Source: Phoronis australis (taxonomy: Eukaryota > Animalia > Phoronida). From it: a DNA stretch of 64,000 nt. Each line of letters begins with the position of its first letter. Positions within the stretch are counted from its first letter, which is position 1. A program made the position numbers and the translations under genes. The stretch lies in contig NMRA01000131.1 in the NCBI GenBank assembly GCA_002633005.1, positions 421,798 through 485,797 of the forward strand, written 5' to 3'. The notes under the pieces are model-generated. The model made no database searches and was not told where the DNA came from. It saw only the letters and a program-made list of their open reading frames with translations. Below, piece by piece: positions 3,840-53,073 of the stretch.

Positions 3840-3962
3840 CTTCATACCTTCCCATCTGGACACAGCCCGTAAAGGTCTGAGTGCACGCAGAGTCCTCATT
3901 GCCTTCATTGCAGCAATGTTGCCCAAATTCATGGCTTCCATGGTTAAGCCAACAATAGAGAT
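3840..3962 (-). CDS. Nav1: Nav1 DIII S3-S4 exon ([41 protein letters not shown])
   Basis: TTTTCAG acceptor, AAG|GTAAGG donor, 123 nt. Confidence 0.96.
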
Positions 3963-27900: not shown

Positions 27901-30900
27901 CTGCAAAGCACTAAAGGAGAGACCACCACGGATGCAAAAAATAAAAACTGCCAAAAAGTGACACCACAATACTCAAACTTGTCCAAAATCTACCATTAGC
28001 CAGTCTTCTCATCAGGAACAAAGTCATTTGCTAAGAAAGTTAAAATTGATCCTCAGAGTAGTTTGGTATATTGAGAAGCGAACGCCAATAAACGGACTAC
28101 AAAAAAAATGACCACTAGGTGGCGCAATATCGAATCCATCATAAAATTAATGGCATCATCATCTCCTTAATTGAAACCTATTAATTTTTGTTAAATTTCA
28201 TCATAGATTACAGACAACAGATTCGCAACTCCGACATTTTGTTTGCAAAATATCCTAGAGGAGGCGCCACCCTCTAAACATAGCAAGCTCAGCTTCCAGT
28301 TAGTGTATTATGACGGGAAATTCTTCCATCTATTTTACTCTCTAGTACATGAAAAAATAATAATTTCGGCATTGAAATGTTGTTTGAGGTCTTCCAACAG
28401 TAGAATCCAGAAATTTTGAGCGGCATCGTCAAGTAAGCTGCTGTTGAGGTATGAGATTGGTTTTTGAGTAGGCCTGGTGGTTATTTCTGGAGTATGAATA
28501 TGAGCTTTATTTATTAGTTAAACGTTTTACGAGCATTCAATTTATTTAAACACGGATGTGAGTTGGGCAAAATCGCCAATCCAAATCCCGACGAAATGAC
28601 CAGGATTAGCAGATGATGTACTTGCTGGAAGCAATGCGTGCTATATCTGCCAGGTGTCACTAGTGAATAATGACTTCACGGCTTATGCGTAAGATCACAG
28701 ATTTCATCCATCGTAAATATACGGAGTTGGCAGTCCATGTAACAGTCTATGATTTCATTAAAATAGATTAAGAAACTCCAAAGATACAGAGGCAAATGTA
28801 CATAAACTAGAATCGCCAACATCCTCCTTTGTCAGCTCCATAGCAACACATTGCCAAATTTCAAGATCTTGCAAAGTGTTAAGGAGATACGCCCATAGAT
28901 GCAAAAAATCAAAACCACTAAGGGGTGCCAAAGTAGTTGAACCCTTTCCAAAAACCAACGTCACCAGTGATCTTCACATCAAAAACACAATTTTCACAAT
29001 GATTCTTGAAGCAGTGTGGTGGATAGAGAGGTGGAAGTAAAAACCGACTCGAAAATTTTCAGAATGCTCACTAGGTGGCACAGAATACGTCAAATCTGTC
29101 CAAAATGGGAAGGTGTTGTCATCTCCTTAATAGATACTCATCTGCCAAATTTCATGAAAATTTATCCAGGAACTACGAAAATATTAAGTCGCACAAAAAA
29201 ACTGAAATTTCTACTGTGGACACAGCAATAGTCGAAACAGTCCTCAGTTCATGGTCGTGAGTTTTCAAGCTTAATCGAAACACATCTAAAAATCTCATCA
29301 AGATTAAGCAAGGGGTTTTGGTTATACAGTGTTTGCTTTCATGCATAGTAAATAACGCATGAAAAATAAGCACTGTCTTTAAAACAGTGCCCAGTCTTGA
29401 CTAATGCGTCTTCTTCAGAGGTTGAGGTCGATAATGGGTAAGAATAAAACAATGGAGCCATCCCGAATTACACGACAATAGAACTCTCCTTTGTCCCAGA
29501 GAAAAAAAAAGCGTGTGACCTTGTTTTTGAAATCAGCCACATTTTCGAGTCCATCATTGATGTTGGGAAGGTGAAGCATTTCACATTACGCATCCGCGGA
29601 TATGTGTCCAGTATATCAAACTTTCCCACCTCAGAGTTGCAGCCCACAGCACAGCAGTAATAACTTATTAGCATTGGAACGATGAATAGATTAATGCAAT
29701 CAAGAAAAACTAGTAAAGAATCAGACAACAAGAAACAACACGATGAAACTTCAATGGCACAAAAAGGAGGCAGCAAATTTGCCTGACGGATGTTTACGGC
29801 ATTGTGGGTAAATACATTGAGATTCGAGTGTCGTGTTGTAATCCGCGACAGCCCTATTAGAACATTATTGCTACTGCCTAGAATGGGAAATTCTGTTGTT
29901 CTGTTGAATAAAAAATGAGCACAAGACTCTACAAGTACAACCAGGCGTTGTATCCTAGCTAGCTTACAGTCACCGCTCATGATCCATTCAAGACACTATC
30001 ACCAAAATCTTATTTTCCAAACAAACTTGGAAACTTTCTTCACTCGAGTTATGATTGAATCAGTGGTTACATTTATTTAGAAGCAACAGACTTGATTGCA
30101 ATGGCAATGGCTTTTTCAACAAAATTCTGGCTCATCTAAAAAAGATTGAGTAGCCAGTTCTATAGCCAAGAAGTGACACTGCATTACCGGATGTTGCTAC
30201 ATACCAAGTAGTAAAGGTTCTCCCAATAATCTTGAGTCATCAGCCGGAATGCGCAGAGGAATGCCCAGCCGAAGCTATCATAGTTTGTGTATCCGTAGTC
30301 AGGGTTGAGAGAGTGGTGGTGATCGTTGGGTATTTCTACATGCGGGAAGCATGTGTAGTTCTTAGGACACTGGCTGTAATGAGATAAGCAGATCTGGTAA
30401 GCATGATCAGTACACGGAACCTTGTGAACCTCACGTCAAACTTCTTAAATGCAGCAGCAAAATAAAAAATTTGACATATTAATTGTTTTATAAACGCTGT
30501 GAAAACTATTTGAATCTTGCAATTATCATGTGAATGTCTTAATGGATTGGAGGTGCCTCTCACGACATCATGGGGGACCATCTGTCTAAAACTTAGGTTA
30601 CGTGTCAGCTGCCAAAAGCTATACCATCTAACCCCATCAGGTGTCGCTAGTGAGAAATCAATGGGAAAAAGAGTGTTGGGCAATATTTCCACATGTCATG
30701 AGCTAAGAATCTAGAGCTGGCAGTGCATCAGCTGTACTTTATGATATTCTTCAACCTCTTCAGTGAGGGTAAGTTTCCAACACCAACAGTGATATAATTC
30801 AACAATAAAAGCAAGGCCAGTCTTCAAAACTGTTACTTACTATGCCTCAGAGTTATTTCCACACAATACGGATTTTCCATCGGGCCAATTACCTAAACAG

Positions 30901-33900
30901 AAAGAAAGTGCTCCATAGTATGAAACAACTATCATCATTACAAACACTGTAACTTTGAGATTTATTGGGTCTGGTACATCAGCAAAATATTTTGAACAAT
31001 TTCTAAATTTAAGACAATCCATACAATTCATTACACTAATTTTTTTTCAGAAAGTGTGAAATTTTCTCACTTTTTGTTAAACAGATGACACTATGAATAG
31101 CTTTAGACAACCAAGTACAGTAACCAAGAGTTCAAAAGTAGAAATAGTTTCTTAGGTGAAGTTATTGACTCCATGACTTTTGGAATGTGAATAGACACAG
31201 AATAGGAATATCAATCTGGATAAAGTGAAGTTTATGACACAAACTAAATAAGCCTTGATGTTAGTACTGTGCAATCATCAATAACTAATTTTGCAAGTAT
31301 TGCAAATTTAATGCATAAATCTAGTGAGCAGTTACAATTATTACAAAGTTAAGTACTTAGGTCTTGTGTGTAGTTGATGTACTCTTCATGATTGGAGAAA
31401 TTGAAATCTGGCGTTTTGACACATTTGCTGGACAATGAACCCATAAATAACTGAAGGCCAATCAATGCAAATATAGACAAAATGAATGTTGTGAGAATCA
31501 TGACATCCCGCAAACGACGAACAGCTTCCAGTAAGGCGCCAACAATGGTCTTTAAACCTGCAATAAAGCAGTTGTAGTAATATGTTAAGGAAACAGCCAA
31601 GCCTACTCAAACACGAAATGATAACATGGACTGCTCTTTCATTCCTATTAGAGTTATAAAAGAAATGTTCGCCATATGAAATGACAAGCCAGCTGAAGCC
31701 AATATTTTGTCCCTGGCCTTGAGCAATAACAGACAGGCAGTTCTTTGTCTTTGACTTTGACCAGGCAGTTCTTCTCCAAGTCCAGTCATTACTAATACAA
31801 GAGAGGAACAATTTGAGACCAGTTTTATACTTTATACCGGCCTTAAGGTGTTCCTGAATTGGATTTTTGCAATTTTTGAGATTTTCGATTGTGCATAATA
31901 AATTTATAACACAAAAACTAACTAAACAAGCACTAATTTTGGGAAATAATTGAGGATTTTTGAATTTTAACAAAATTTAATGATTTTTTGGTTTCCCGCC
32001 ATGTGATGTCATCAGTGGAAGACAGTGTATATGCAATGGCGGATGTGGTAATTAAAACCTGTTATTGAATTACGATTTAATAACCACTTAAGTGTCAAGT
32101 AATATGGGTCTCGAACTTTAAATCTAACTGAAGTTTTTACTCCGACTGCCAAAGCCCAGTCGCGAATAGTGGACACTGATTTCATTTAGGAGAATGCCGA
32201 GTGTATTTGGAACAATATCTGATTATAGTGACGCTAATTGGGTTTTAATTCTGGTTAATTATACTGTCTCATTTCTGTCTTGCCGGTTGCAAAATTATGA
32301 AAGCTTTGTACCGTTCTGACTTATCGTTTATCATGGGAGATCTTGGGGTTTTTTGAAAACGCAAAAACTGAAATGTTGTCCGTCGGATTGCTCTCAGTCA
32401 AACTAGATTTTTGAGACCACTGCGGCTCACAGCTCGTGTAGAACAACACAATGTCAGAGATCAGATCCACTGATGACATCACACGAAAACTTTATTTTTA
32501 ATTTTTTTGTTTATTTCTTGACAAATACTTTAAATGTCATACCAATTTTTTGGTAACCTAATTCAAGCATTTATGACCATGATCTGAACCATTTAATCAT
32601 AATTTTTGTACGGAAGGAGTATATAGCTGCTGCATATTGTGCTGGACTCGCGCTGCACTCTCAAATGCTCATGTGCGTTATAAAGTTCGTGCTTTGCAGA
32701 AAAATAACCAATCGTGTTTGAAAGGATGTCTTTCTCTTATCAGATCGACTTGTTCAAATACTAGAAAGGGATAAATCATTGTTTTTGAATCCTAGGCAAG
32801 GTAAAGTCCACCAACTTAGGACACAATAAAAAATAGTGCAAGCAACCTGATAAACACTGCAGCAGACGTGCGCAGCCAGGCCCAACACCTAAAATTATTT
32901 TCTGTTTGTTAATACGTACAAGACAGCTAAGACCGAATTGACTCAATGGGATGTGAACCCACGACCTGAAGAACAGCAGACATACCCTTAACCTACTAGG
33001 CCAGAATGCCTCCCCTCCTTGGACAAAATATGGCCAACCAGAGAATTTTTATTTTTTTATTTTAATCATAAAAATGCATAACACATTCAAGCACTGTACC
33101 ATAGGTACTACCTATCAATATTTTCAAAACTGTAAACATTCATACCAGAGGACCCTCAAAACTGAACAAGAGCAACACAGAATGTTGAAATGCTCCCACG
33201 AATGCACCGCTAATGGTGTGCTTCTAGGAGTGTTTATTTCTGTCATAAAAATTGCCCCTAGATGGCAAAAAATATGTTAAATCCATCCAAAAATAGGAAC
33301 ATGTCATTGTCTTTTAATAGAAAGCTATTTTGCCAAATTTCACAAAAATCAATGACAGAACTTCAGAGAAACAGAGAAAAACGAAAAAATGAAATTGCCA
33401 TTAGTGGGTACAGCAATGGTCAGATAGGTCTGAAAGTCATAGTCATCGTCCGTTGTCAACTTCATATACCGGTAAACACATTTGCTAAATTTCATAAAGA
33501 TCCTGCAGTGGGTTTAGAAGATACAGAATGATAGGTGCAAAATACAAAACCGTCACTAGGGGGCACCACAGTAGGCGAAGTAGTCAGATAATCATCGTTA
33601 ACCATCTTTTTCACACTAAGAATAAATGCCAATTTTCCCAAAAATCCTTACAGTAGTCTGGTTGATAGAAGGGCGGACGCCAAAAACAGACAAGAAATCA
33701 GTAATTAGAAAATAGTAAAAATGGCCACTACATGGAGCAAAATACTCCGAATCCATCCGGAAATGGGAACATGTCATTGTTTCTTGAACAGAAAGCTATT
33801 TTACCCAATTTCATAAAAATCCATCAAGGAACTTCAGAGGAACAGAAGAAAACGAAAAAAATGAAAACAGTAAAAATGGCCACTAGGTGGCACAAAATAC

Positions 33901-36900
33901 CTCAAATCCATCTGAAAACTGGAGAATAGCATCATCTCACTAATTGATGACTATGTGCCAAATTTCATGCAAATCCATTGAGGACCCTTGAAGAGAAAAC
34001 TAAAATTGCCACTAGGGGGCACACTGGTAGTCCAATATGTCTGAAACTCGTTATCATCCGTCGTCAGCTTCATAGGAACACCTCTGTCAAATTTCATCAA
34101 GATCCTATGAGGGGTTTAGAAGATAAAGCTGCAGATGACAGACACCGGACACCAAGACAGAGATGACGGCAATATGCAGCCACATTTAAATAATTATGTG
34201 GGCGCATAAAAAGGACAATTTTTGCTACTATTTCTGTCCCAAATTGGCAAGATTTTACCATAATCATAAACATTGACTGTTAATATATTGAAACAATATT
34301 ACGTTTAATTTAAAAAGCCTCTTTAATTCGAGCTGAGACGATTCAAATTGATGCAGTCTCATTCTCTACAAACCTGGTATGACAGCAACTGTTTTTAAAG
34401 CTCGCAGAACACGGAAAGTCCTCAAGGCTGACAGATTTCCTAATTCTGATATAAACTCAGTAAGATACCTGGAAAATTAAAATGATATACTTTCACATGT
34501 TAAGAGGTCACAGACAGAAAATAAACATGGCCTGACAGCACATAACAATACAATCTGTAAGTAAAAGTAAATTCTTCAAATCAAAACACAACAATGTGCA
34601 TGAATACAAAAATGCCAGTTAATCTAAAAATTTGACACTAAGAACGACTTTAGAAAATAACACTCTGTAATAATGAGTCAAGTGTCATGGTTTTTTGTTT
34701 TATGTTATCTTTAAAACTTGTGACATTTTACTAAGAGTGCCATTGTAATAGTTTCTGTAATTCCAAGTAAGGTACGTGTATTTTTTCTGTAAATTCCATT
34801 ATTGTGCTGCATGCATTGTATTTTATTTTCTTTTTACATTTGTACCCACATGGATAATACTGGAAAACCATGTTATCGCTGATCAGGTTATAAATTAATT
34901 ATAATTTTAAATTAACTATAAATAGCTGGGACACAACCTACTAAAAGCTGCATTTCATCCCCTTTAGCTGGGACACAACCTACTAAAAGCTGCATTTCAC
35001 CCCCTTTAGCTGGGACACAACCCACTAAAAGCTGCATTTCATCCACTTTAGCTGGGACACAACCTACTAAAAGCTGCATTTCATCCCCTTTAGCTGGGAC
35101 ACAACCTACTAAAAGCTGCATTTCATCCCCTTTAGCTGGGACACAACCTACTAAAAGCTGCATTTCATCCCCTTTAGCTGGGACACAACCTACTAAAAGC
35201 TGCATTTCACCAACTTTAGCTAAAAAACAAAAATCGGCCTGGGCCTTTCACTTTAATAAAATCAGTCTCACAATGTTCCTGTGCATAGACTTTATTTCCA
35301 TTAACAACCAGAAAATCAAAAATGTCTCAGATGAAAGCGTACATGCGCCATCGTCAAACTGAATCATTTCCAATGTTCTTGTTGGTAATGGAAGTAGAAT
35401 CTTATTATGGTAAAAAATAATGTGAGACCAATTTTATGAGCATAAAATGCGAAATTCAATTTTTGTATTCTAGCCAGCTGAACAGGGTGAAGTGTACTTT
35501 AAATACTAATTACATGATGTGGTTTGTGACCAATACTCACGCTAAACTGATAACCATGAAGTCCAGCCAGTTCCAAGCATCTCTAAGATAAGTGAAAGGT
35601 TTCAATATAAAGCCGCGGGCGAGCATCTTCACTAAAGCTTCAAAAGTGTAAATTGCTGTGAACACATATCTGAAATGACAAGCAGACTTAAGACAGTTTA
35701 TCAAGAAAGAAATTAATTTTAAACAAAATGTCTACAATTTCTTACATACTGAACAATACAATATAAATTACCTTTTTCTCTGAGAAATTCCAGACAACGT
35801 AAATAAATCTCCGGTTTCACAAAAAAGGAATATACTCATGTCTACTGCTTCATAGCGAGAGGTTTCTCAAAATGTCAATATAAGCTAAGGCTGAATGGTA
35901 ATTCCATTATGGTAATTCTTTGCTTATTTTGCAGAGAAATAATTGCTGAAATTGTCGTTTTCCATGTTTAAGAGACTAATTACCTTGCCGCATATAATGG
36001 AAACTTACCAAATATTGTTTTGTAACATTTACAGAGCACAGACCAAGTCACAAAAATTTGATAAAATAAAATTTTACTTGTGAACCATATTGACAGCTAA
36101 AATAGTCAAGAATTGAGAAGTGTGGTAGACACTTAGTTAAAATGTCTGTGTGTAGCAGTCACAGTGTCTGTGTGTAGCAGTCACAGTGTCTGTGTGTGCA
36201 GTCACAGTGTCTGTGTGTAGCAGTCACAGTGTCTGTGTGTAGCAGTCACAGTGTCTGTGTGTAGCAGTCACAGTGTCAGTGTGTAGCAGTCACANNNNNN
36301 NNNNNNNNNNNNNNNNNNNNNNNNNNNNNNNNNNNNNNNNNNNNNNNNNNNNNNNNNNNNNNNNNNNNNNNNNNNNNNNNNNNNNNNNNNNNNNNNNNNN
36401 NNNNNNNNNNNNNNNNNNNNNNNNNNNNNNNNNGTGTAGCAGTCAAATGTCTGTGTGTAGCAGTCACAATGTCTGAGTGTAGCAGTCGCAATGTCTGAGA
36501 GTAGCAGTCACAATGGCTGTGTGTAGCAGTCACAATGGCTGTGTGTAGAAGTCACAATGTCTGAGTGTAGAAGTCACAATGTCTGTGTGTAGCAGTCACA
36601 GTGTCTGTGTGTAGCAGTCATAGTGTCTGTGTGTAGCAGTCACAGTGTCTGTGTGTAGCAGTCACAATGGCTGTGTGTAGCAGTCACAATGGCTGTGTGT
36701 AGCAGTCACAATGTCTGTGTGTAGCAGTCACAATGGCTGTGAGTGTTGAGAAATGGATCAATGTGAACAAAAATCATTTGCAAACATGAAGTGTCGTCTT
36801 CCATATTCACTAGTTTTTTATCCGTCCTACCAAGGTCAGCCTCAAACTCATCAACAGGACTCTTCGGGGTTTTTTTTAAAAGCAGGAACAAATCTTGTAA

Positions 36901-39900
36901 ACACTGACTAATTTTTGGGCATTATCAGTTTTGCAGATAAAAAATGCTATTTTGTGATTATTGTATGAAAGAATACTCCTTGAAGATTTTGGCTTTGACG
37001 AGAAATAAATTGTCACTGCTGTCTGCCACACATTCTCTCAAGGCCAGTTCTTTACCAGTATATGGTTAAAATATTCTGTACTTATTGTATGGGATTTAGT
37101 TCCTCCAGCAGAGATTGCAACCACAGGCATCGCAGGTTCGATTCCTCGCTAAGACTGATCTCAAAAAATCAATTTTCTAACTGATAATGTCTCTTTAAGT
37201 ATTGTTTTCAATGACTTAAATTATTTGTTTTCCACTCACACTTTGTTGGCTCTCATTGAAAACATGGTTTTATTCAATCTGAAAATCTTCTGTTTCCAAT
37301 GAAAGTAGTGAATGAAAATCAAACAAAATAGATTAGATTATTTGTGATTGGAGCTGTGCTCATCTGAACAGATTACAATATAATACGACACGTGACAATG
37401 TGATGAATAGACATTTAACACATTTTTACAAGATCAAAATTTCATGTCTGGAAATCTAAAAATGAACATTCATTGAAGCCAAGACCAACAGATTGAACAT
37501 TTGTGTTTATAATAAAGGTTGACCGCAACAACAAAGAAAGCAGTCATAGGCTTTGAAGCCCTTAGAGAAACAAGCATTTTAAACTATATGTAAATTGCTT
37601 CTGTCACAATCATTGAAAATGCAACATTATTCATTTTACAATGAATATTTGTCTTTAATGAATTTTGGCTGCTTGTAACAAAACAAGTAGTTGATCAAAA
37701 AAACAGAATGTCAGTCACAAATGCAAACATAACCGCTTACTCGGACATCTCAGGTGGCTCTGACATGGTCATAAACACACAGTTGGTGAGAATAGTGAGA
37801 ATGACTAATACACTGAAAACTTTGTACCAAGTTAAGGAAACGAAGCAAAGATACAAGAACAGACTAAATAAAACGTTAAATAAAACGGAAAAACTTTGTT
37901 GCAAGCTGTAGACTAAAAAGTGTAAGAATGTCACATCAAAGTTATTTCTTGATACTACATGTGCAATGCATATAGCTTGTATATGGATAAATCAGAACTG
38001 TCATGTGGCCAAATCAGACTGCCATATGGACGAATCAAAACTGCCATGAAGACAACCGTCATGTGGATAAATCAAAATTGTCACGAGAACAAATTAAAAC
38101 GGTCATGTGGACAAATCAAATCGTCACGAGGGCAAATCAAAACAGTCATATGAACAAATCAAAACTGTCATGTGGACAAATCAAAAGTGCCGTGTGAACA
38201 AATCAAAACTGTCCTAGCACGACATACTGACTCACTACTGAGTCAACACAATTGACATTCAGTGCCCATGACAACATCAAAGGTCCAACACAAATACAAG
38301 ATTGGCAAGACAGTTGAAAATATGGCATCGTGTAGATCTAACAAAGACTACTGAAAATTGAAATAACAACAAGTCTGATGTGGTTCATCAGATGACAAAA
38401 ATAATCGTTCAACTCGACTTGGTTCCCTGTATTGTCATGAAAAGTTACGGAAGCTAACTCTGAAAAGTCAGAAAACCATAACAAATCAATGGCTACATTT
38501 CAAAGGGTTCTGTGTTTTTCACAACATAATTATCAAGAAGAAAAACAACGACAAGCAAAGTCCCACCAACAACTATGGGGGTAAACGATGAATGTTTGAA
38601 AATTCAACTTGAAACATTTCAAAACAATGTGATCAGTAACATTTCCAGTAGAAATTTTGCTAAATTTAAATTTAATGATGATGACAAAAAGTCAACCACA
38701 ACAATGTTGCCAAACTCATTGTTTGCATGACAAAACTGTTTCATTACATTGGATCTCACTTACAGAAAAAGATGGATGTAAAAATAGCTATAAAAACTGA
38801 GAGCCTTTAAAATGTAAATAAGAATAAACAACTTGGATAAAAGATGATAGCATGCATGTAGGGTGGAATGAGCCACAGAGTTTTAAATACACTTTTGGTC
38901 ACGTATTTCAGGAACAAAAAACGAGATGTTTTAACAGCTTTGACAGCAATCAATCATTCAGTTAGAAGTCATAACATCCATCTATTATACTTACTCAGAA
39001 ACCTCTGGTGTCTTTTCCAGGGTCATGAAAATGCAATTAACTAGAATTGTTAAAATAACAATAGCATTAAAAGCTGTGAGTAAAGGTTAAGGATTCAAAC
39101 AGGGTTGTACACATCACACTCTCCACTAAACTGTACAGTAATACCATTTACCATACAGCCAATTGGGAAGGAAGGTGATTATTTCACAGCAACTACTCCA
39201 AACTGGAGACGAGCAATACAGCACTAAACATATTTGTTCTAACTAGCAAAATTCAACAAACCTAACTTTTTTAAATATGAAGTTCGTGCCATAGGATCTG
39301 TGAAGCATACAAATTAGCATATAGGTGTGTTCTAAAAGAGATGAAATGGTGATTTTCCATTCTCAGCTTTGACCCAATGTTATTTCCCATAGAAAAGTGG
39401 CAAGGGTTAGAACCAAGATAGCAGAATCTCTTAGATGATCCAAGTACGATGACGTCACGCTTCCCATCACTAATTTTTCATCAACAGCTTTATTAGCACT
39501 GCTCATCACAACGGGAAGTCTAGTTCATACCAAATGGTAAACAGCAAGCATTTGTTTTCTACAATTACTGGAGGAAATTAGAGAAAATAAAACATGATAT
39601 TACTAAAATCATGCATTAGATAAGTACGTTAGTAACCATCAGGTGTCCGAATTGCAACAGCAATATTAGCGTATTAATTGAAATACAGAGCAGCTTAGGG
39701 AAACAAGAATGTTCCTGTTGATGAAAATCATTGTACATTCAATTGGTAATTTATGCACTATTCAAACATGCAAAACTACTCCTAGGTCAGCACTTCAGTT
39801 TCAGTGAAACCCTAAAATGAGTTTTTGCAATACTTGGCTGTTTTTAAGATAATCAATTTCCACGAAAAGGATATGGATGGACTAGAGTGTACAAAGCCAC

Positions 39901-42900
39901 CCTACGCAGTGGGTTTGTGGGTGTGAGGCAAAACAAGGCGTTGTGGGCGCTGAACCTGAATATCGTTTTGTCTCGACCAATAACAACAAAGACCTGCAAG
40001 GGAAGAAGAAACAAATTTACTCATTGACGAACTGGCTATCATCAAATTCCCACTGAACTCTTAATACAAAGATCTTGACCACTACTGAGTTTTAACTTTG
40101 CAAGAAAACTCCATACCTTGTGTTAGCAATCCAATTTTGAAACTTAAAAATTGGGATAATAATGAAGACGTAACGTTGGAAAATCTTCATATTGTCCCCC
40201 AGTTCACCTACGTATATTTTAAAGTTTAAATTCCCACCAACTTCCTCGGGTTTTCTTTCCTTTTTGCAGAATTTACATAGAAAAGCCTACAACTAGAAAA
40301 TTGACATGAATAATTTTTGGAGGGGTAGAATTCAAGTTTCAGTACTAGCCAGGCTTAGCCTAATTCACAATAGAAAATCCTTGCTCATGCACAATATACA
40401 ACCGAGAAATTGTTTGTTGTAGTACAGTTAGCAACCAAGAAACTGTTTGTTCATGTACAGTACCCAATCATTCATGCACAATGTACAACTAAGAAACTGT
40501 TCACATATACTTTAGATCCAAAAAAAAATTGTTTGTTCATGTACAGTATATAACCAAGAAACTGTTTATTCATGTACAGTATATAACCAAGAAACTGTTT
40601 GTTCATGTACAGTATATAACCAAGAAACTGTTTGTTCATGTACAGTATATAACCAAGAAACTGTTTGTTCATGTACAGTATATAACCAAGAAACTGTTTG
40701 TACGTGTATGTACATGTTGTCAACAAGCTGTTTGACCATGAACAATATTCTGTCAAAAAGCTTTTAGTTCATGTATATTTTACAACCAAGAAACCGTTTG
40801 TTGATGTATAGTATGCTATCAAGAAACTGTTTTTTCATGAATAGTATGCAGCTAAGAAACTGTCTGTTTATTACAGTAAACAGGTAAAACTGTTCATGTA
40901 CAGTGTATAGCCAAAGCACTCTGTTCATGAAAAGTATACAGCCAAGACACTGTTTGTCCTTGAGCATTATACAATCAATAAACTGTTGGTTCATGCACAA
41001 TAACATGCCAGGTCCTTGACCAGTTTCACCTCTTTGTCGTGATAGTAAGGGTCCAGATCCTCTAGTGGTTTCCCCGCTATCTCCAGCGTAAATTCACTGT
41101 CCAGACGTGGTGGAAGTTTCTTGCCCACCTCTAGATGAGGGTCGGGCTTCAATGGCTCTTCCTCCTCTTCTTCTTCTTCTTCCTCTTCACTGTCTTCATC
41201 TTCATCAACCTAACAACATTACAGCTATCAACTTTAGATTTCCTCCCAGTCTGTTGGCTGCACTATCATTGAAAATCCGAGTGTGCTCAATGATTACAGG
41301 CTTTAAATTATAACACCGGCAGTGAAAAATAAAACATGTCAAAAATTTTAAGTGGTGTGCGTTAAAGACCTTGTGGCTAAAATCGAGAGGTGAGAAGACA
41401 CTTTACAAATTCACACATGGAGACACAGACAGTGCATAACCTGCAGTGACTTCAGCAACAGTGTATCCACGATTGACGGCACATCCCTGATAGACACTTA
41501 TACGATTTTTGATCTTCCCTATACTACCAGTGCTCTCCATGATAGAAAATTCAAATACAACAAAAAAATTGCCTGTGTCCAACGTCTTGATATCAAAGGA
41601 AGTGTGTATAAAACATTGGAAGAAGATGATAGTGAAAATAAATTGTGGATTTGAAGCAGGAACATAAAATATTCTCTGTCTCACTAAAACAACACTATTT
41701 CTATAATCACAGCAGTATCATTCCAGAGACGTTCTTTCAGAGATGTTGAGTGTTGACAGTGGGTGTAAACACATCTTTAAGCCAACTTTATTGTTTATCA
41801 TTCCATTTTTTATCATATGATTTAAAACCACAGGAACATATTATTTTTATTACATCACGTACAACACCGAGCTGGACAACAAGCCAATTATCATCTTTTC
41901 CAATAACCAAGCATCAATAAGGGCCCTTAAGTAACCAAGGGTCAACTCTCGCTGCCTCAATGCTTGTATTAATGAGCTTAACAAGCTTGCAATCGAAAGA
42001 ACTGTCAATATGCACTAGGTCAGGGCCCATATAAAAACTGACAGCAATGAAAGTACAGGTAGAGTAGCAAAGATTGGAGCTGGCATTCTAAATTGTGTAC
42101 CTGAACCTATACCGACACACTACAAGTACTGCTGAATGAGTATACACAATTGAGTACACACCAGGTCAGCAGCCCAGAGGGCATCGCTTAACACTTGCTG
42201 AGAAACCCATGAGATTTTTCCCAATGTGATCAAACCAAAAGGTTCAAAAAAGACAGCACCTTCACAGAATGGGTATAAGGGATTTTGCAAAATTTTGGAA
42301 ATGATGCGTGCACGTGTCACGAGCGTACTGCTTTCCAAATGACTGTGGACTTTTCTTTATTACAAAAGTCAGAGAATTATGCAAGAAAATTACATTTATG
42401 AGTTTGTTTTTCACTTAAACAACTGCAAAGGGCATGGTGTCTGTTGACTCCCAGATTTTGCATGCATTCCTGTCAGTCATTAGCTCTAGATGTTGATTAT
42501 AAGTTTCACATCAAGGTGAGAAGCAGAACTACTGGGAGTCCAGTGTGAAATTTCAGGCTCTAACGAAGCTCAACACACAGTGGTACCTAGCTGTATTTGG
42601 ATAGCAGTTGTATACCTTTCTCTATTGTAAACACTTCAAAAAAAAGTTCTGTCCCCTTCAGATAATTGTAGTATTTTTTTCAAATTACCATCAATTCGCA
42701 TAAGATACACATTATTGCAAAGCTTATTAATTAATGCGTCGAAGGTTGGAAAATGTTTTATTATTCATAAACATAACATTATACAGGGTGTCCAGAAAGG
42801 GCACAGGAGTCAATTTCAAAAATTACAAAATGGTACACTGCGCAGTAAACACTCGTACAAAGTTAAATTTGACAAACTTGTCCCCAATGAGTGATTTCTT

Positions 42901-45900
42901 TGGTAGTGAAATTAACTTTAACATGAGATATTCAATAAGATCTTTATATTTCCAAAAGATTTGATCACATGGCTGAGTGCTTTAGTACACTGTGCATTGA
43001 TGGATACATTTATGGTGCATGGAACAAATCAAATGATGCATGCTGTTCTGACCAGTGGTATTCCATTCCTAGGACTTCTCTCAGTTGTGCCAGAGTGGTG
43101 TTAGCCAAGATCTGTGACTGGGTAGCTGGCACCAACGGGTCCCACAACAACTCAATGGGCTTAAGGTCTGGTGAGCAGGAGGTCCATTTCATGCACATTC
43201 TCTTGTAAAAACGCATCCACAATGCGGGCTCTGTGAGGGCGGGCGTTATAATCTTGGAGCACGAAACCATTGCCTACTTGCAAAACACGTGCGGCTACAG
43301 TATCTCTGCAATGTACCGTGGACTGTTGAGGTTCCCAGCTGTGGGGACAAGCTGAGTTCATCCAGCTAAACATATGCCAACCCATTCCATCACACTTCCA
43401 CCTTAGAACAGTCTAACTGGCTGGACGCAGTTGTCGGCAAATCGCTCACCTCTCCTCCTCCATACCCTTAAACGACCATCAACATCACTCAAACAGAATC
43501 TTGACTATGAAGAGCTTTTTCTCTAATTTTGAAGTGTCCAATACCTGTGCTGCCTGGCCCATTGTAATCTGGCAACTCTGTGTGCTGCTGTCAGTGTCAA
43601 GACTAGATGGCAAGCAGGGCACCAGGCTGTGAGACCTGTCTGATGCAGTCTATTCCGGACTGTTTGGTCTGATATCATATACGTCTTGCCCCTGGTCCAG
43701 CGGCCCTTTGGACATCAAGCTGTATGGTACGTGGAACACAGAAACGCCTCCTGGCAGTAGCAGTTTCGATGTATCGGTTAGCAGGTAAGGAGTTAGGCAA
43801 TGACCATCGCCTCTGTTGGCCCGAACCAGAGGCGATGTAGAGGCTATAGGCGCTCTGTACGCCGGAAGCTTTTCGGCGAATTATGCCTCGCACCGACTAA
43901 ACCATCAAAGTCACGTTGTTACAAATACCTTTTGCGCATAGAGGAACACCTTAGGAGGTTGTCGATGTGATTAATTCCTTCCAACTCGAACAAATACTCC
44001 CGTTATGAAACTTTTTCTTCGAGCAGTCCCTATTTCAGTTCCCAAAATCGTGAACTCACCATTTTTATACTGCGCACGCTCCAATTCATGACCTCAATCT
44101 TTAAATAGGCCAAAGGTGAGCCATTGCGGTCTTGTCAGTCAAATGTTCGTTTCCAAAATGCCACCACTTATACTTGTCTTTAATTGGCGTTACTTGAAAC
44201 TGATTGTATTTCAATGAATCATTGTTTGTATTTGATAAAAATAAATGCTGTTGATATGACATTTAATAGTCTTTGTGCACATATTTGACATTTTAATGTT
44301 TAACAACACGGCAAATGCACGGCTGGTTCCCGGCAGCACGTACGCGAAGGGCGGGAACTTCAGCTTTCAAAGTTCGCCGGTAGGTCCGCAACTTCTGACC
44401 TTCGGCCTGGTTAAAAAAAATGAAAATGTTGATTTCACGATTTTGGGAACTGAAATAGGGACTGCTCGAAGAAAAAGTTTCATAACGGGAGTATTTGTTC
44501 GAGTTGGAAGAACTTAAACACATCGACAACCTCCTAAGGTGTTCGTCTATGCGCAAAAGGTAGTTATAACAACGTGGCTTTGATGGTTTAGTCGGTGCGA
44601 GGCATAATTCGCCGAAAAGCTTCCGGCGTACAGAGCGCGTATAGCCTCTACATCGCCTCTGGTTCGGGCCAACAGAGGCGATGGTCATTGCCTAGTAAGG
44701 AGTGAACTTGCAATTTTGTGATTTTTGAAATCGACCTCTGCGCGCTTTTGGGACACCCTGTACAATCCAATATGCATGAACAATAAAAATTTCCCAGCAT
44801 TTGACGCATAAATAAATAAGAATTGAAATGGTTAGAATTTATGCGCATTGAGGGTAATTTGAAGAAAATACCACAAATTATGTGAAGGGGACAGAAGTTT
44901 GAGGGGTTCAGTAATCGAGACAGGCGCTCAGATAGAAGTGTGTGAGATCAATAGGCAATTCAGTACCCTCACTTGCTTTAGAGACAATCAGCAATGCAAC
45001 ATAATGCGCTAACTGAACAATCTATCACATACATGTTACGAATCGCTTACGCACAACTCGTATTTCCTTCTTTTTTTCTTTATGAATCTCTCAACCATAA
45101 AGAGCACGAACGGCTGTTACCTCCAACAGTGAAGAGCATTTTTCAATTTTTCAAGGCGATAGATTCAGATTTAACATTACCGCATTTCATTTGCAACGTA
45201 AGCTAACACAATCGCCGGCACAGGCAGGTATGCCCAACAGGTAAAACTAATTCCCAATCGAAAGTAATGTGTTTTATTTGACAATTCACCTGTCCACTAA
45301 TCAACCGGAGTCAGATCCCAAGGATCTATTCTTGTTCCCTCCTTTTTACGTAAATGACCCCCACAAATCCACTTTTCCAGAAACCCTTATGTATCTTGAT
45401 GATGCCTGTCCTATATACACGTCTAAGTCTACAAAACCAATAGACAACGAGACAGAAAACAAGCTATGGCAGACCGTGGCATATTCACGTGGTTATTAAT
45501 TAACAAATTGTCATTAAATGTCACCTACACTAAATACATTACATTACACTTCCCTCAAAAAATTAATACCTAAGGTTACTATAAGCAGCCAAAACTTAAC
45601 TTTTTTCGTCTGGCGATTTTTATCCTGCTCTGAACATTCTGGTGGGAACAACTAAAATTGCACAAACCTGTGGCGTATCCAATAAACTCAAGAAATATCT
45701 GCATTTATTCACACTGACAACGATATAATACTCCTTGATCCACACTCATTTAACTTTTGGCATCACAATACTGGTGATTTTAAAATGTCAACAGATTACA
45801 ATTCTTTCAGAAACAAGCCTTACGAATAATCACAAACTCAAATTATTTTGCCTGCAAATTACTAAAAATACTTCGGCTTGAAGGCACTCTTATTATGTCC

Positions 45901-51900: not shown

Positions 51901-53073
51901 TCTTTGAACACAATTTTGACACCCAATCACGAAAATAGTGCTAAAATGAGCTTCCAGTGCATGAGAGCCTAATTTATTGAATCATCGCTCCAGAGCCAAG
52001 AATACTTCCTTAGGCATTACAATTCCACGATGGCGGCTGGCGGCCATCTTAGATTTATCGATGACGTAAGCAAAATTCATTTTGTCATACACTGTTATGC
52101 CTGAAACACTCCTAGATTAGTCTGAATTTATGTATAAAGATGTCCTGAAATACATGACCTCACTGTATATCCAATGGAACATGTGAGGCATAATGTGACC
52201 TTGAACTTGATCTTTTCGCGTGACCTTGACCTCAAATCACAAAAATAGTATCAGAATTTTTTTTATCATACCTGAAAACCTATAGTTTAATGCATCATAC
52301 TCATTTTTTTGGATCCAGTCCCCAAAAATTTGTGAAAATCAATCGTCAGAACTGCATTACCCCCAGTTGCCCTCGACACCATTTTCTGAGGCCTTTTTTG
52401 AAAATTATAACCTGACTACTAGAAGGATCTTCAGGTTTTGGGAGAGCGGTCGCCCCAAGTGGTATATTTAACTCGCTCGAGTGTTAGCCACGCTTGCCAA
52501 TTCAACACACTTTGTAAGGAGGGTTTCAAATTCATTTCGCACTTTTTAGGGTTGACAATGGTTACAAAGCAGCATTTGTTGTTATCGTTTTCGTATCGTC
52601 CGGTAAGGACTAAAATGGAGTTTAGCAGCGTGTCATGATGACCAGTACTGAAAATTTGAATAGTTTGATAAACGTGTGTTCATAGATACCTGTAATTTTG
52701 ATTTCTCCTGTAAAGCCTCTGTCGCTCCCGTTTTATAAATGTATACATTTCTTAGTACATAAATAACAGCAATATTTTTAATTTGTCTTCAATATTCAGA
52801 CGGCAAAGTGGAAAATGCTGTTCAATAAATCTTTAACTATAATTAACTATAACGAATATTTCTGCTCTTAGTTGAGCTATGTACCATGGTGAAGTGTGGA
52901 TGAATATGTTTTACCTTTTCTAACTGTTCTTTCAGCAGTTTGGCCGCTTTATTTTCGGCAACTCGTTGCTGTATTTTGAGCAGAGACTCGCGCGTGAAGG
53001 GACGAAAAGGAATAAATAACTCTTCCTCCTCTTCTTCATAGTCGGTTTCATAAAGCCTATCCTCGCCAGCCAT
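3840..53073 (-). CDS. Nav1: Voltage-gated sodium channel alpha subunit, Nav1/para-type (multi-exon, 3' part lies outside the window)
   Basis: Exons join in phase and give hallmark motifs: [25 protein letters not shown]4 helices ([36 protein letters not shown]), and pore loops TQDYWEN (DI, D) and CGEWIES (DII, E). Linker motifs [13 protein letters not shown] and [11 protein letters not shown] resemble protostome Nav1. Confidence 0.97.
4265..4764. mobile_element. MITE with short TIRs (hAT-like CAGGG ends)
   Basis: CAGGGCTTGGAAT...ATTCCAAGCCCTG, with TTACTT on both flanks and GCGGAA subterminal repeats; inserted in a minisatellite. Confidence 0.75.
4770..5360. repeat. Minisatellite, about 37-bp unit (degenerate copies also at about 4125-4260)
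   Basis: CCAACAATGACAAAGTCTAACTGGTCATACACTCATT repeated about 16 times. Confidence 0.95.
5376..5549 (-). CDS. Nav1: Nav1 DIII S2-S3 exon ([11 protein letters not shown]...[14 protein letters not shown])
   Basis: TTGCAG acceptor, GGC|GTAAGT donor, 174 nt. Confidence 0.96.
6946..7260 (-). CDS. Nav1: Nav1 II-III linker/DIII-S1 exon (CHEAPTRN...[10 protein letters not shown]...[22 protein letters not shown])
   Basis: GCTCAG acceptor (5' boundary less certain), CTG|GTGAGT donor, 315 nt. Confidence 0.9.
7338..8450 (+). mobile_element. Helentron/HINE-like non-autonomous repeat (5' part)
   Basis: Starts ACAAGAGC...GTTGAAATGCGCCCACGACTGCACCGC, like the copy at 33165; degenerate internal subunits contain CCACTAGRGGG. 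Confidence 0.6.
9225..9550 (+). repeat. Interspersed repeat; second copy at about 42288-42598
   Basis: Collinear similarity (GTGTCACGAGC...TTTCACTTAAAC...AGCAGAACTAC...GCTCAACAC...TACCTAGCTGTATTT). Confidence 0.8.
9840..10537 (+). mobile_element. Helentron/HINE-like repeat (3' part)
   Basis: Same subunits, then a (GACG/GACA)n microsatellite, a CCCATAT...ATGTGGG stem-loop and ATAAAA. Confidence 0.65.
11650..11915. repeat. 39-bp tandem repeat overlapping the exon donor
   Basis: TACACTGTACACAGTAATACAGCCTACCAC-type unit; minus-strand GTAGG recurs at 11892, 11814, 11775, 11736, 11697 and 11658. Confidence 0.85.
11893..12282 (-). CDS. Nav1: Nav1 DII-S6/II-III linker exon ([16 protein letters not shown]...EPNKL...DSVDGLL)
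   Basis: The TTTTAG acceptor is secure. The 3' end at CTG|GTAGGT (phase 0) is the best donor, but alternatives exist. Confidence 0.82.
13050..13640 (-). repeat. Interspersed repeat bounded by about 50-bp direct repeats; inverted relative to 1320-1985
   Basis: CTACCTCG(G/A)TCTCCTTTTCATCTCTGGTA..AAGCTTG at about 13059 and about 13591. Confidence 0.7.
14212..14392 (-). CDS. Nav1: Nav1 DII pore-loop/S6 exon ([36 protein letters not shown]...IIIGYLV)
   Basis: TTTCAG acceptor, GTG|GTAAGT donor, 181 nt; DII filter Glu. Confidence 0.96.
15523..15704 (-). CDS. Nav1: Nav1 DII S4/S4-S5/S5 exon, copy B ([60 protein letters not shown])
   Basis: TTCCAG acceptor, TT|GTAAGT donor, 182 nt, phase 0-2. Confidence 0.93.
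16256..16440 (-). CDS. Nav1: Nav1 DII S4/S4-S5/S5 exon, copy A ([61 protein letters not shown])
   Basis: TTTCAG acceptor, AA|GTGAGT donor, 185 nt, phase 0-2. Confidence 0.93.
17560..17733 (-). CDS. Nav1: Nav1 DII S2-S4 exon ([17 protein letters not shown]...[32 protein letters not shown])
   Basis: TTTTAG acceptor, TTG|GTGAGG donor, 174 nt. Confidence 0.96.
18080..19700 (+). mobile_element. Helentron/HINE-like repeat, long copy
   Basis: Tandem degenerate subunits (AAATTTCATGAAAATCCATCAAGGAAC; GCCACTAGGGGGCACC), ending GAGATGA..TAATATGCACC. Confidence 0.65.
19963..20219 (-). CDS. Nav1: Nav1 DII-S1 exon (LYSGYVRE...[11 protein letters not shown]...[26 protein letters not shown]...YGNY)
   Basis: GGCAG acceptor, TAT|GTAAGT donor, 257 nt. 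Confidence 0.93.
20655..21190. mobile_element. Degenerate MITE
   Basis: Imperfect inverted ends (TACTGTTGTG / CACAACACTATA) with repeated GCGCTTATTT subterminal motifs. Confidence 0.4.
21361..21426 (-). CDS. Nav1: Nav1 I-II linker exon ([22 protein letters not shown])
   Basis: TTCTCAG acceptor, A|GTAAGT donor, 66 nt, phase 1-1; resembles insect para DVMVLNDIIEQA...SRAS. Confidence 0.87.
21600..21942. repeat. Minisatellite, about 55-60-bp unit x6
   Basis: TTCACCATCAGAGTAGCTAGAATGACCTGTCATGACAGTTGAGTTCAAGC repeated. Confidence 0.9.
22105..22195 (-). CDS. Nav1: Nav1 I-II linker exon ([30 protein letters not shown])
   Basis: Weak AAG acceptor, G|GTACGT donor, 91 nt; its phase 0-1 is needed to join the neighbouring exons. 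Confidence 0.75.
23157..23606 (-). CDS. Nav1: Nav1 I-II linker exon with poly-His tract ([10 protein letters not shown]...[10 protein letters not shown]...[14 protein letters not shown]...[13 protein letters not shown])
   Basis: TTTCAG acceptor, AAC|GTAAGC donor, 450 nt; conserved SLSLP, FADD and LPEVVVDK motifs. Confidence 0.93.
24600..24782 (-). CDS. Nav1: Nav1 I-II linker exon ([22 protein letters not shown]...[11 protein letters not shown]...EKPKVT)
   Basis: GACAG acceptor, ACG|GTGAGA donor, 183 nt open frame. Confidence 0.88.
25365..25388 (-). CDS. Nav1: Candidate 24-nt microexon (EEEAALQK), I-II linker
   Basis: TTGTTTCTAAG acceptor, AAG|GTAGGA donor, phase 0-0; fits the post-IS6 acidic helix. 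Confidence 0.65.
27471..27611 (-). CDS. Nav1: Nav1 DI-S6 exon ([47 protein letters not shown])
   Basis: TTGCAG acceptor, GCT|GTATGT donor, 141 nt. Confidence 0.96.
27860..29330 (+). mobile_element. Helentron/HINE-like repeat fragments (about 27860-28200 and 28770-29330), interrupted
   Basis: Same subunits as 18080-19700 and 33165-34212. Confidence 0.55.
30205..30373 (-). CDS. Nav1: Nav1 DI pore-loop exon (QCPKNYTC...[34 protein letters not shown])
   Basis: TTACAG acceptor, TTG|GTATGT donor, 169 nt; DI filter Asp followed by Tyr. Confidence 0.96.
30841..30892 (-). CDS. Nav1: Nav1 DI turret exon ([16 protein letters not shown])
   Basis: TTTAG acceptor, TA|GTAAGT donor, 52 nt, LCGN motif. Confidence 0.9.
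31357..31557 (-). CDS. Nav1: Nav1 DI S4-S5 linker/S5 exon ([22 protein letters not shown]...[15 protein letters not shown]...TQDL)
   Basis: TTGCAG acceptor. The 3' end at A|GTACTT was chosen because its phase fits the next exon. 201 nt. Confidence 0.9.
32944..33003 (-). mobile_element. tRNA-derived SINE head or tRNA pseudogene fragment
   Basis: A-box-like TGGCCTAGTAGG and B-box-like GGTTCACATCCC at tRNA spacing; no intact cloverleaf. Confidence 0.45.
33165..34212 (+). mobile_element. Helentron/HINE-like repeat, apparently full-length
   Basis: AACAAGAGC start, internal degenerate tandem subunits, GACA-type tract, CCACAT...ATGTGG stem-loop and ATAAAAA end. Confidence 0.7.
34374..34468 (-). 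CDS. Nav1: Nav1 DI S3-S4 exon ([32 protein letters not shown])
   Basis: TTCCAG acceptor, CAG|GTTTGT donor, 95 nt, S4 arginine periodicity. Confidence 0.96.
34925..35221. repeat. Minisatellite, 39-bp unit x about 7.5
   Basis: AGCTGGGACACAACCTACTAAAAGCTGCATTTCATCCCCTTT-type unit, seen as the repeating 13-aa ORF 34912-35205. Confidence 0.93.
35200..35500. mobile_element. Degenerate palindromic MITE; related copies at about 47200-47595
   Basis: TTCCATTAACAACCAGAA / TTCTTGTTGGTAATGGAA and TCTCACA / TGTGAGA inverted arms. Confidence 0.55.
35541..35669 (-). CDS. Nav1: Nav1 DI S2-S3 exon ([43 protein letters not shown])
   Basis: TTTCAG acceptor, GC|GTGAGT donor, 129 nt. Confidence 0.96.
36140..36742. 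repeat. Minisatellite, 21-bp unit, containing an assembly gap (N at 36295-36433)
   Basis: TGTCTGTGTGTAGCAGTCACA(A/G) repeated. Confidence 0.95.
37741..37821 (-). CDS. Nav1: Nav1 DI-S1 exon, copy B ([27 protein letters not shown])
   Basis: U12 branch point TTCCTTAAC-TTGGTACAA| (the in-frame acceptor is AA); U2 donor GA|GTAAGC; 81 nt, phase 2-2; paralogous to copy A. Confidence 0.85.
37983..38212. repeat. Degenerate minisatellite, about 22-bp unit
   Basis: GTCATGTGGACAAATCAAAACT repeated; lies between the two DI-S1 exon copies. Confidence 0.88.
38995..39075 (-). CDS. Nav1: Nav1 DI-S1 exon, copy A ([27 protein letters not shown])
   Basis: U12 branch point and acceptor TCCTTAAC-CTTTACTCAC| (AC); U2 donor GA|GTAAGT; 81 nt, phase 2-2. 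Confidence 0.93.
39866..39874 (-). promoter_or_regulatory. U12-type (minor spliceosome) 5' splice site ATATCCTTT
   Basis: Exact consensus, at the position of the AT-AC intron known just before DI-S1 in vertebrate SCN genes. Confidence 0.92.
39875..39993 (-). CDS. Nav1: Nav1 exon ([40 protein letters not shown]) ending at a U12 AT donor
   Basis: TTGCAG acceptor; ends CATCC|ATATCCTTTT, the U12 5' splice-site consensus; phase 2. Confidence 0.95.
40375..41000. repeat. Minisatellite, 33-bp unit
   Basis: AACCAAGAAACTGTTTGTTCATGTACAGTATAT; homogeneous core at 40530-40700 with degenerate flanks. Confidence 0.93.
41030..41209 (-). CDS. Nav1: Nav1 N-terminal exon ([11 protein letters not shown]...[15 protein letters not shown]...[14 protein letters not shown])
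   Basis: TTAG acceptor, GAG|GTGAAA donor, 180 nt, conserved PLEDLDPYY motif. Confidence 0.93.
43010..43780 (-). pseudogene. Tc1-family DDE transposase remnant (frameshifted)
   Basis: [14 protein letters not shown] and [16 protein letters not shown] in different frames correspond to the Tc1 motifs QQDNAxxH and WPxxSPDLNPIENLW. Confidence 0.88.
43794..44694. mobile_element. Mutator-like MITE (about 260-bp TIRs, 9-bp TSD) nested in the Tc1 element
   Basis: TAGGCAATGACCATCGCC...GGCGATGGTCATTGCCTA; GTAAGGAGT duplicated at 43785-43793 and 44695-44703. Confidence 0.88.
45880..46558 (+). mobile_element. 5'-truncated LINE (CR1/L2-like) 3' end
   Basis: [28 protein letters not shown] and ..SYGLNS..G.SLWNKLP are typical of the region C-terminal to RT; AATAAA followed by a (TTAC)n tail. 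Confidence 0.75.
47632..47730 (-). CDS. Nav1: Nav1 N-terminal charged exon ([33 protein letters not shown])
   Basis: TTTAG acceptor, AAG|GTATTG donor, 99 nt, phase 0-0, open frame continuing the E/K-rich helix. Not in the ORF track. Confidence 0.75.
52915..53073 (-). CDS. Nav1: Nav1 first coding exon ([53 protein letters not shown])
   Basis: ATG at 53073; 159 nt; donor AAG|GTAAAA. An upstream acceptor TTTTTTTCACAG at 53123 implies a non-coding 5' exon elsewhere. Confidence 0.9.

Follow-up and report, generated by a model that had tools for sequence, protein, structure and literature searches.

Two copies of the domain I S1 exon in a phoronid Nav1 gene: a probable mutually exclusive pair, presumably held apart mainly by minor and major splice sites

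How does a gene with two paralogous copies of one exon see to it that each message carries exactly one of them, when either copy alone, both copies together and neither copy can all leave the reading frame open? This question is raised by a sodium channel gene of Phoronis australis, in which the exon for the S1 helix of domain I (DI) and the outer S1-S2 loop stands twice in tandem behind a single U12-type 5' splice site. The reading favoured here is that the copies probably form a functional, old and mutually exclusive pair, which would be locked mainly by the incompatibility of the minor and the major spliceosome, in an orientation that mirrors the known cases.

The features described are located on the minus strand of the stretch of 64,000 nt that was analysed (the window), which contains a sodium channel gene of four domains over its 5' two thirds: the gene starts near 53073 and can be followed as far as the S4 segment of domain III near 3840. 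With regard to the DEKA filter of Nav1, the D in domain I and the E in domain II were found in the translations; exons for the pore loops of domains III and IV (filter residues K and A) were not found within the window. Two trees placed the gene among lophotrochozoan Nav1 sequences, the translated channel grouping with Lingula (bootstrap 99 and 91 on 764 and 770 columns, respectively), these protein trees being built from few taxa with long branches and no Nav2 sequence. Protein searches found no spliced protein from the same species or a close relative, the best match being 73% for the upstream exon and 88% for the downstream exon at 35669 (Owenia, 88%, followed by Capitella, 83%). The first large intron carries a broken Tc1/mariner-type transposase remnant (43013-43896, minus strand; HTH_Tnp_Tc3_2 with E 4.9e-10 on one of three pieces).

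Upstream of the duplicated segment, a constitutive coding exon of the N-terminal domain (41030..41209) was located by tblastn to Nav1 homologues. In run X1, three RNA reads extend past the boundary of the following exon at 39993, and their loose ends agree with the 3' end of the exon at 41030, which shows transcription and splicing of the gene at 41030/39993. This following constitutive exon (39875..39993), which is covered by few RNA reads and is single-copy in the window, has its phase-2 end on the conserved His-Pro that precedes DI S1 and is directly adjoined by a 5' splice site of the U12 type, ATATCCTTT (39866..39874, starting at 39874). That there is a single U12 donor, as had been claimed, was borne out, since it is the sole perfect match in the window, with ATATCCTT/GTATCCTT occurring nowhere else on either strand. 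In both consensus and position, it agrees with the D1S1 U12 site that is conserved in Nav and Cav genes (PMC6259924), in line with the statement that this AT-AC intron is ancient in Nav/SCN genes. Among database fragments with the His-Pro motif, unspliced or spliced, 75 of 132 continue with Tyr-Pro, i.e., the translated U12 donor.

Behind this donor follow two paralogous exons of 81 nt, copy A (38995..39075) and copy B (37741..37821), which both end in GA, match the start of Pfam Ion_trans and encode the DI S1 helix together with the S1-S2 loop (LEKTPEVSE in A, MSEPPEMSE in B). Copy A, to which an annotated Lingula exon is nearest (18/27 residues), is preceded by the U12 branch point motif TCCTTAAC (39086..39093) and by the acceptor dinucleotide AC (39076..39077), which closes an AT-AC intron of 799 nt and is the only in-frame entry tested for A; the U2 donor GTAAGT (38989..38994) follows it. 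Copy B, which aligns with S1 of human Nav1.7 (residues 127-151), has a TCCTTAAC branch point of its own (37831..37838), the acceptor dinucleotide AA (37822..37823), which is predicted from the reading frame to end an AT-AA intron of 2053 nt, and the U2 donor GTAAGC (37735..37740). By its motifs, the intron of 1173 nt between the copies (37822..38994) is a hybrid with a U2 5' end, a U12 branch point and a non-AG 3' end. Further downstream lies the constitutive exon for DI S2-S3 (35541..35669), assigned by homology and sequence, with its ordinary U2 acceptor at 35670. When the sequence was re-read, all elements named in the earlier note, including the twin exons, a branch point for each of them and the hybrid intron, were recovered at their minus-strand positions. 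Neither a hidden duplicate of the upstream exon nor a third S1 copy nor a U12 donor within the hybrid intron was found in the window. Intronic tandem repeats occur at 36143-36741 (22 nt), 34923-35221 (42 nt), 37984-38213 (22 nt) and 40526-40999 (33 nt); an N gap (~36293-36433) lies inside the first-named array, between copy B and the next exon. A U12-donor-like GTATCTTT (37854-37847, minus strand), 16 nt upstream of the branch point of B, is too near to it for an intron and could be due to chance or represent a U11-binding silencer.

If the second A of TCCTTAAC is taken as the branch A, the motifs starting at 39093 and 37838 put 11 nt (copy A) and 10 nt (copy B) between it and the intron end, which, together with the perfect ATATCCTT donor, corresponds to introns of the U12-type AT-AN class. 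The optimum reported for the distance between branch point and 3' end of U12 introns is 11-13 nt (PMC3584512); the spacing of copy B is at or slightly below it. The TCCTTAAC octamer occurs four times in the window, each time on the minus strand, versus ~1.3 expected per strand, and the chance of meeting it in a given 5-nt slot is ~1e-4. Its two other occurrences were rejected as further U12 sites, the one at 31591 preceding an ordinary U2 acceptor and the one at 28885 being intronic.

The U12 acceptors proposed for both copies have to be regarded separately. The canonical AC end, and with it the AT-AC intron, holds for A, whereas B lacks it and needs AA, so its intron would be of the rare AT-AA type. 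Of the acceptors that lie 8-12 nt past the branch A, the AA at 37823-37822 alone keeps B in frame; entry through an AC two bases upstream (37823) or an AG two bases downstream (37819) stops prematurely. AT-AA U12 introns are rare, but documented (8 of 66 non-canonical U12 introns; Table 2, PMC1557818); generally, non-canonical U12 ends often splice less efficiently, and AT-AG pairs are disfavoured (PMC3584512). Given the AA end of B, the U12 donor would have two ends to choose from, a canonical one close by and a weak one farther away; likely, A is the default and B the regulated form.

The locus presents tandem paralogous exons that share one phase and can each give rise to an intact protein, with a U12-type flank on one side, a U2-type flank on the other and, by sequence motif, a hybrid intron in between. 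An old tandem duplication would have included, besides the DI-S1 exon of Nav1, the U12 branch point and the U2 donor belonging to it. The minor spliceosome would then pair the donor at 39874 either with branch point A (AT-AC) or with branch point B (AT-AA), upon which the U2 donor of the chosen exon would join the U2 acceptor at 35670. Copy A would not readily be joined to B, because its U2 donor would need the non-AG, U12-type end of B; if the nearest AG in B were used instead, the frame would be shifted and the product would go to NMD. Likewise, both copies would not readily be skipped, because the U12 donor would meet no well-placed U12 branch point at 35670. U12 and U2 splice sites are generally incompatible (PMC3584512). 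From this arrangement of signals, it is likely that each message carries exactly one copy. Between the two proteins, 11 of 27 residues would be different, which in voltage sensor I belong to S1 and the outer S1-S2 loop; that the swap affects gating, trafficking or toxin binding is a guess.

Other guards of exclusivity appear less suited. With A alone or with B alone, an open frame of 442 residues through DI is obtained. Skipping of both copies, inclusion of both and inclusion of both with B entered at TTTTCAG are all free of stops, which upholds the frame symmetry of the exons asserted earlier. For this reason, NMD would not be the main guard and, as judged from the frames, could not act as one against skipping or in-frame double inclusion. 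Steric interference was rejected as the lock, the hybrid intron, with 1173 nt, being too long for it. Docking-site RNA pairing between the intron segments tested (repeat and gap excluded) yielded only local matches of 12-20 nt or matches at chance level. With NMD unsuited as the main guard, steric interference rejected and no strong long-range pairing found in the segments tested, the incompatibility of the splice-site classes remains, and it is likely to be the lock as far as sequence can tell.

This genome is not alone in having two versions of the exon; there are counterparts in Lymnaea and in annotated versions from four other molluscs. The earlier note had called for twin exons to be sought in relatives, and a comparison of the isoform sets of 30 clusters (at most 15 listed members each) revealed two versions of the S1 segment in five molluscs, as cDNA and annotated protein records. 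The Lymnaea LNav1 cDNAs 4a and 4b (AKH03687, AKH03688) contain two versions of exactly the DI S1 plus S1-S2 segment, Biomphalaria glabrata X1 and X2 contain two versions of the DI S1 segment, one per protein, and in Ruditapes philippinarum the versions are split 9 versus 4 among the 13 listed isoforms having the segment; in the pairs compared from these three species, differences within the first 420 residues are confined to the S1 segment. In Mercenaria mercenaria (1/10 isoforms listed) and Crassostrea virginica (2/15), the second version is found in N-truncated models, which begin inside the second S1 exon version and otherwise match full-length isoforms. In these RefSeq models, a non-canonical U12 joint upstream may have defeated annotation, as is predicted for copy B. 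A Lymnaea genome model runs through His-Pro-Tyr-Pro-Phe, corresponding to the translated U12 donor, by which a U12 donor ahead of the Lymnaea segment is implied.

Proteins with two S1 motifs were absent among 545 examined (regular-expression test, fragments included), a count to be read with the reservation that annotation pipelines may under-report double inclusion. For Octopus, Lingula, two Owenia genes, Saccostrea, Magallana, Mytilus, Branchiostoma, rotifers and eight arthropod clusters, the isoforms listed (at most 15 per cluster) show no second S1 version; within these limited isoform sets, this agrees with the supposition that the duplication is absent from vertebrate and insect Nav genes. 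While A is closest to Lingula, B is closest to rotifer and chordate exons (16-20/27). In AU tests of the exon tree on 32 columns, p was 0.55 for a clade of A and B, 0.21 for one ancient duplication (A with 4a, B with 4b) and 0.06 for duplications that arose three times independently; the sole arrangement rejected was the crossed pairing (p 0.033). As both snails and bivalves have two versions of the segment, the Nav1 DI-S1 switch is probably wider than this gene, i.e., a little-described switch rather than a one-off, and by analogy with the mollusc orthologues, the use of exactly one copy in the phoronid gene is indirectly supported. Two further observations concern related segments. In Babylonia, Nav1 exists as two paralogues on separate contigs, the first annotated with a 4b-like S1 exon and the second with a 4a-like one, for which a partition of the two S1 versions after gene duplication is possible. 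The DI S3-S4 segment, at the position of vertebrate 5N/5A, exists in two versions in Magallana, C. virginica and Mytilus; its exon is single-copy in the window (34468-34374).

How tight the proposed lock would be depends on the start of copy B, which includes two AGs (37813..37821), 12 and 19 nt past the branch A. From the donor of A, the first of these (37821-37820) leads to a frameshift and a stop, whereas the second, within TTTTCAG (37819-37813), is in frame; with 11 pyrimidines in 20 nt, the latter is in the range of the real acceptors of this gene (9-17). U12 3' ends with AG can be borrowed by the major spliceosome, the branch sequence of a U12 intron can also serve as the pyrimidine tract for U2 splicing, and MAPK12 and CENATAC are cases in which U12 3' ends are taken by U2 donors (PMC8329584). 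In view of the in-frame TTTTCAG with acceptor-range pyrimidines and of such documented sharing of 3' ends, the lock may be leaky through the AG inside B. It is conceivable, albeit on the unlikely side, that both exons are functional and mostly exclusive, with a leaky class mismatch, while splicing regulators, the removal of the frameshifted AG product by NMD and quality control of channel proteins that contain two S1 helices do most of the work; in line with this, exon choice in JNK2 depends on the pyrimidine tract and on Nova (PMC1874599). What speaks against such a division of labour is that the true acceptors are both non-AG (AC and AA), that strong docking-type long-range complementarity was not seen in the intron segments tested, and that none of the 545 proteins has a double S1. 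Non-AG acceptors are the case least open to the major spliceosome.

The preferred reading of a functional, exclusive pair further requires that both copies are alive, and several lines of evidence bear on this. The peptides of A and B are identical at 16 of 27 positions and the exons at 52 of 81 nucleotides; 15 of 26 full codons encode the same residue, 10 of these 15 by a different codon. Synonymous divergence is saturated (pS 0.74; pN 0.26), the flanks cannot be aligned past the branch point and the donor, and 15 of the 29 differences fall on third positions (P 0.008). When 29 changes were placed at random in 20,000 simulated trials, 0.125% of these retained 15 or more identical residues and stayed free of stops. 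Under neutral decay, simulated with substitutions only, branch point, donor and frame were jointly kept in ~6%, ~0.5% and <0.1% of cases at 0.2, 0.4 and 0.6 substitutions per site, respectively. On a profile of 30 homologous exons, B scored 55.3 bits and A 50.8 bits, the training exons ranging from 46 to 65. Both copies look selected; given the intact signals, the saturated synonymous sites, the simulations and the profile scores, B is unlikely to be a long-dead pseudo-exon. The claim that the twin exons are functional, for which a pseudo-exon had been named as the refuting case, is supported in that both look functional, splice signals and frame having been kept at saturated synonymous divergence.

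It is improbable, too, that one copy, most likely B with its AA acceptor, sees little use or has died recently, which would leave the gene effectively single-exon at this place. Lingula, with five full-length isoforms, has one version, most like A, and B is without reads at ~1x depth; A, however, is without reads as well, and B, at saturated synonymous divergence, has retained its length and frame as well as a perfect branch point and donor, with a profile score within the range of real exons. The three RNA runs contributed 11, 11 and 1 reads over 36760-40390 (~1x depth, about a fifth of each run sampled); of these 23 reads, none lies on A or B, no joint is listed, and 12 fit, at 90-95% identity, a short repeat within the intron near 39368-39411.

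Very improbable is the use of B through its internal TTTTCAG, be it as a cassette after A or by an AT-AG intron from the U12 donor that drops three residues. Both products would be in frame; however, a second S1 helix would be expected to invert the topology of the remaining domain, the AT-AG route removes a Phe conserved in 32 of 32 aligned exons, and the site is 19 nt from the branch A, with AT-AG pairs being disfavoured (PMC3584512). An assembly artefact, in which two alleles or paralogous genes were collapsed in tandem, can practically be dismissed in spite of the N gap (~36293-36433) in this draft region, as the copies, identical at 52 of 81 nucleotides, are far past allelic distance, their flanks are unalignable, the neighbouring exons are single and molluscs likewise have two versions.

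The same gene contains a second duplicated exon pair, located in domain II (16440-16256 and 15704-15523, minus strand; 185 and 182 nt), which covers the S4-S5 linker, S5 and the start of the turret and has ordinary U2 ends. Here, each exon is in frame alone, and double inclusion or skipping results in a frameshift. The first 50 codons specify the same residue in 44 cases, and 28 of 35 differences are at third positions. A second version of this segment was not found in the mollusc or Lingula isoforms listed. We take the S4-S5/S5 segment of domain II to pack on voltage sensor I, according to the domain-swapped architecture of Nav channels. The region is the same as that of the Drosophila para C/D exons (PMC4309913). 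A more far-reaching reading, put forward as one joint claim, is unlikely: a single duplication would have predated the split of molluscs and lophophorates and given rise to a switch maintained for ~500 My, the minor spliceosome itself would pick between the two branch points, the AC and AA ends would set the default ratio, and the switch would retune voltage sensor I in concert with the domain II pair.

In the reviews considered, alternative splicing by the minor spliceosome is described as almost absent, with few hybrid-intron cases, which have the other orientation where described. One U12 donor choosing between two U12 branch points in a gene of the action potential would offer a clean test of whether isoform ratios are controlled by minor-spliceosome activity or by AT-AN-specific factors. 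Lymnaea, for which both cDNAs exist, is a direct test system. Furthermore, there may be a blind spot in annotation, in that N-truncated models such as those of Mercenaria and C. virginica may be the form in which second copies behind non-canonical ends show up. The class of mechanism itself is known, and the layout follows simply from exon duplication behind a U12 intron.

Among known Nav genes, vertebrate 5N/5A and 18N/18A as well as Drosophila para C/D and K/L are likewise duplicated membrane-segment exons of which one is used at a time; in contrast to the present pair, they affect S3-S4 or IIS4-S5, not DI S1, and no minor intron is named for them in the consulted parts of PMC4309913. The D1S1 intron is treated as constitutive and conserved in PMC6259924, in whose accessible text the terms 'mutually', 'exon 4' and 'splice variant' do not occur. 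For oyster Nav1, variants are reported in linkers only (PMC5295241). The Lymnaea 4a/4b cDNAs and the mollusc isoforms concern the same segment as the Nav1 pair, with one version per protein, while their records carry no splice mechanism; the accessions AKH03687 and AKH03688 are not mentioned in the papers searched. The literature searched, with theses and subscription papers outside its scope, contained no paper on a Nav1 DI-S1 exon pair or a layout with two branch points, and the passages seen of PMC11347168, PMC6865273, PMC3557258, PMC4436565, PMC8883539 and PMC9459249 have nothing on this layout.

With respect to mechanism, the closest systems are exons 6a/6b of vertebrate JNK (MAPK8/9/10) and 11/11a of TMEM87A/B, which are likewise tandem paralogues with a U12 flank, a U2 flank and a hybrid intron (PMC1874599, PMC6717393, PMC8329584); for these, duplication of an exon with parts of both introns has been proposed, as would apply to the Nav1 pair. 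They have, however, two U12 donors and two U2 acceptors, and their hybrid intron is of U12 type at the 5' end and of U2 type at the 3' end, whereas the Nav1 pair has one U12 donor and two U12 branch points with the acceptors AC and AA, its hybrid intron being of U2 type at the 5' end. By this opposite orientation, the Nav1 pair is set apart from the JNK/TMEM87 subtype. The mirror image of the JNK arrangement, as it was called in the earlier note, is therefore an apt description with regard to JNK and TMEM87 as presented in PMC1874599 and PMC8329584. Five human clusters of mutually exclusive exons with U2/U12 incompatibility (PMC5740500) belong to the same mechanism class; donors before and after the clusters were screened there, and the mirror layout could be among the five, with human MAPK14 finding no confirmation as such a case in the literature passages seen. 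Compared with these systems, the phoronid exon pair is probably a mirror-orientation variant of the known mechanism of U2/U12 incompatibility, and the two versions of the segment in molluscs are an unnoticed database precedent for the exon pair itself.
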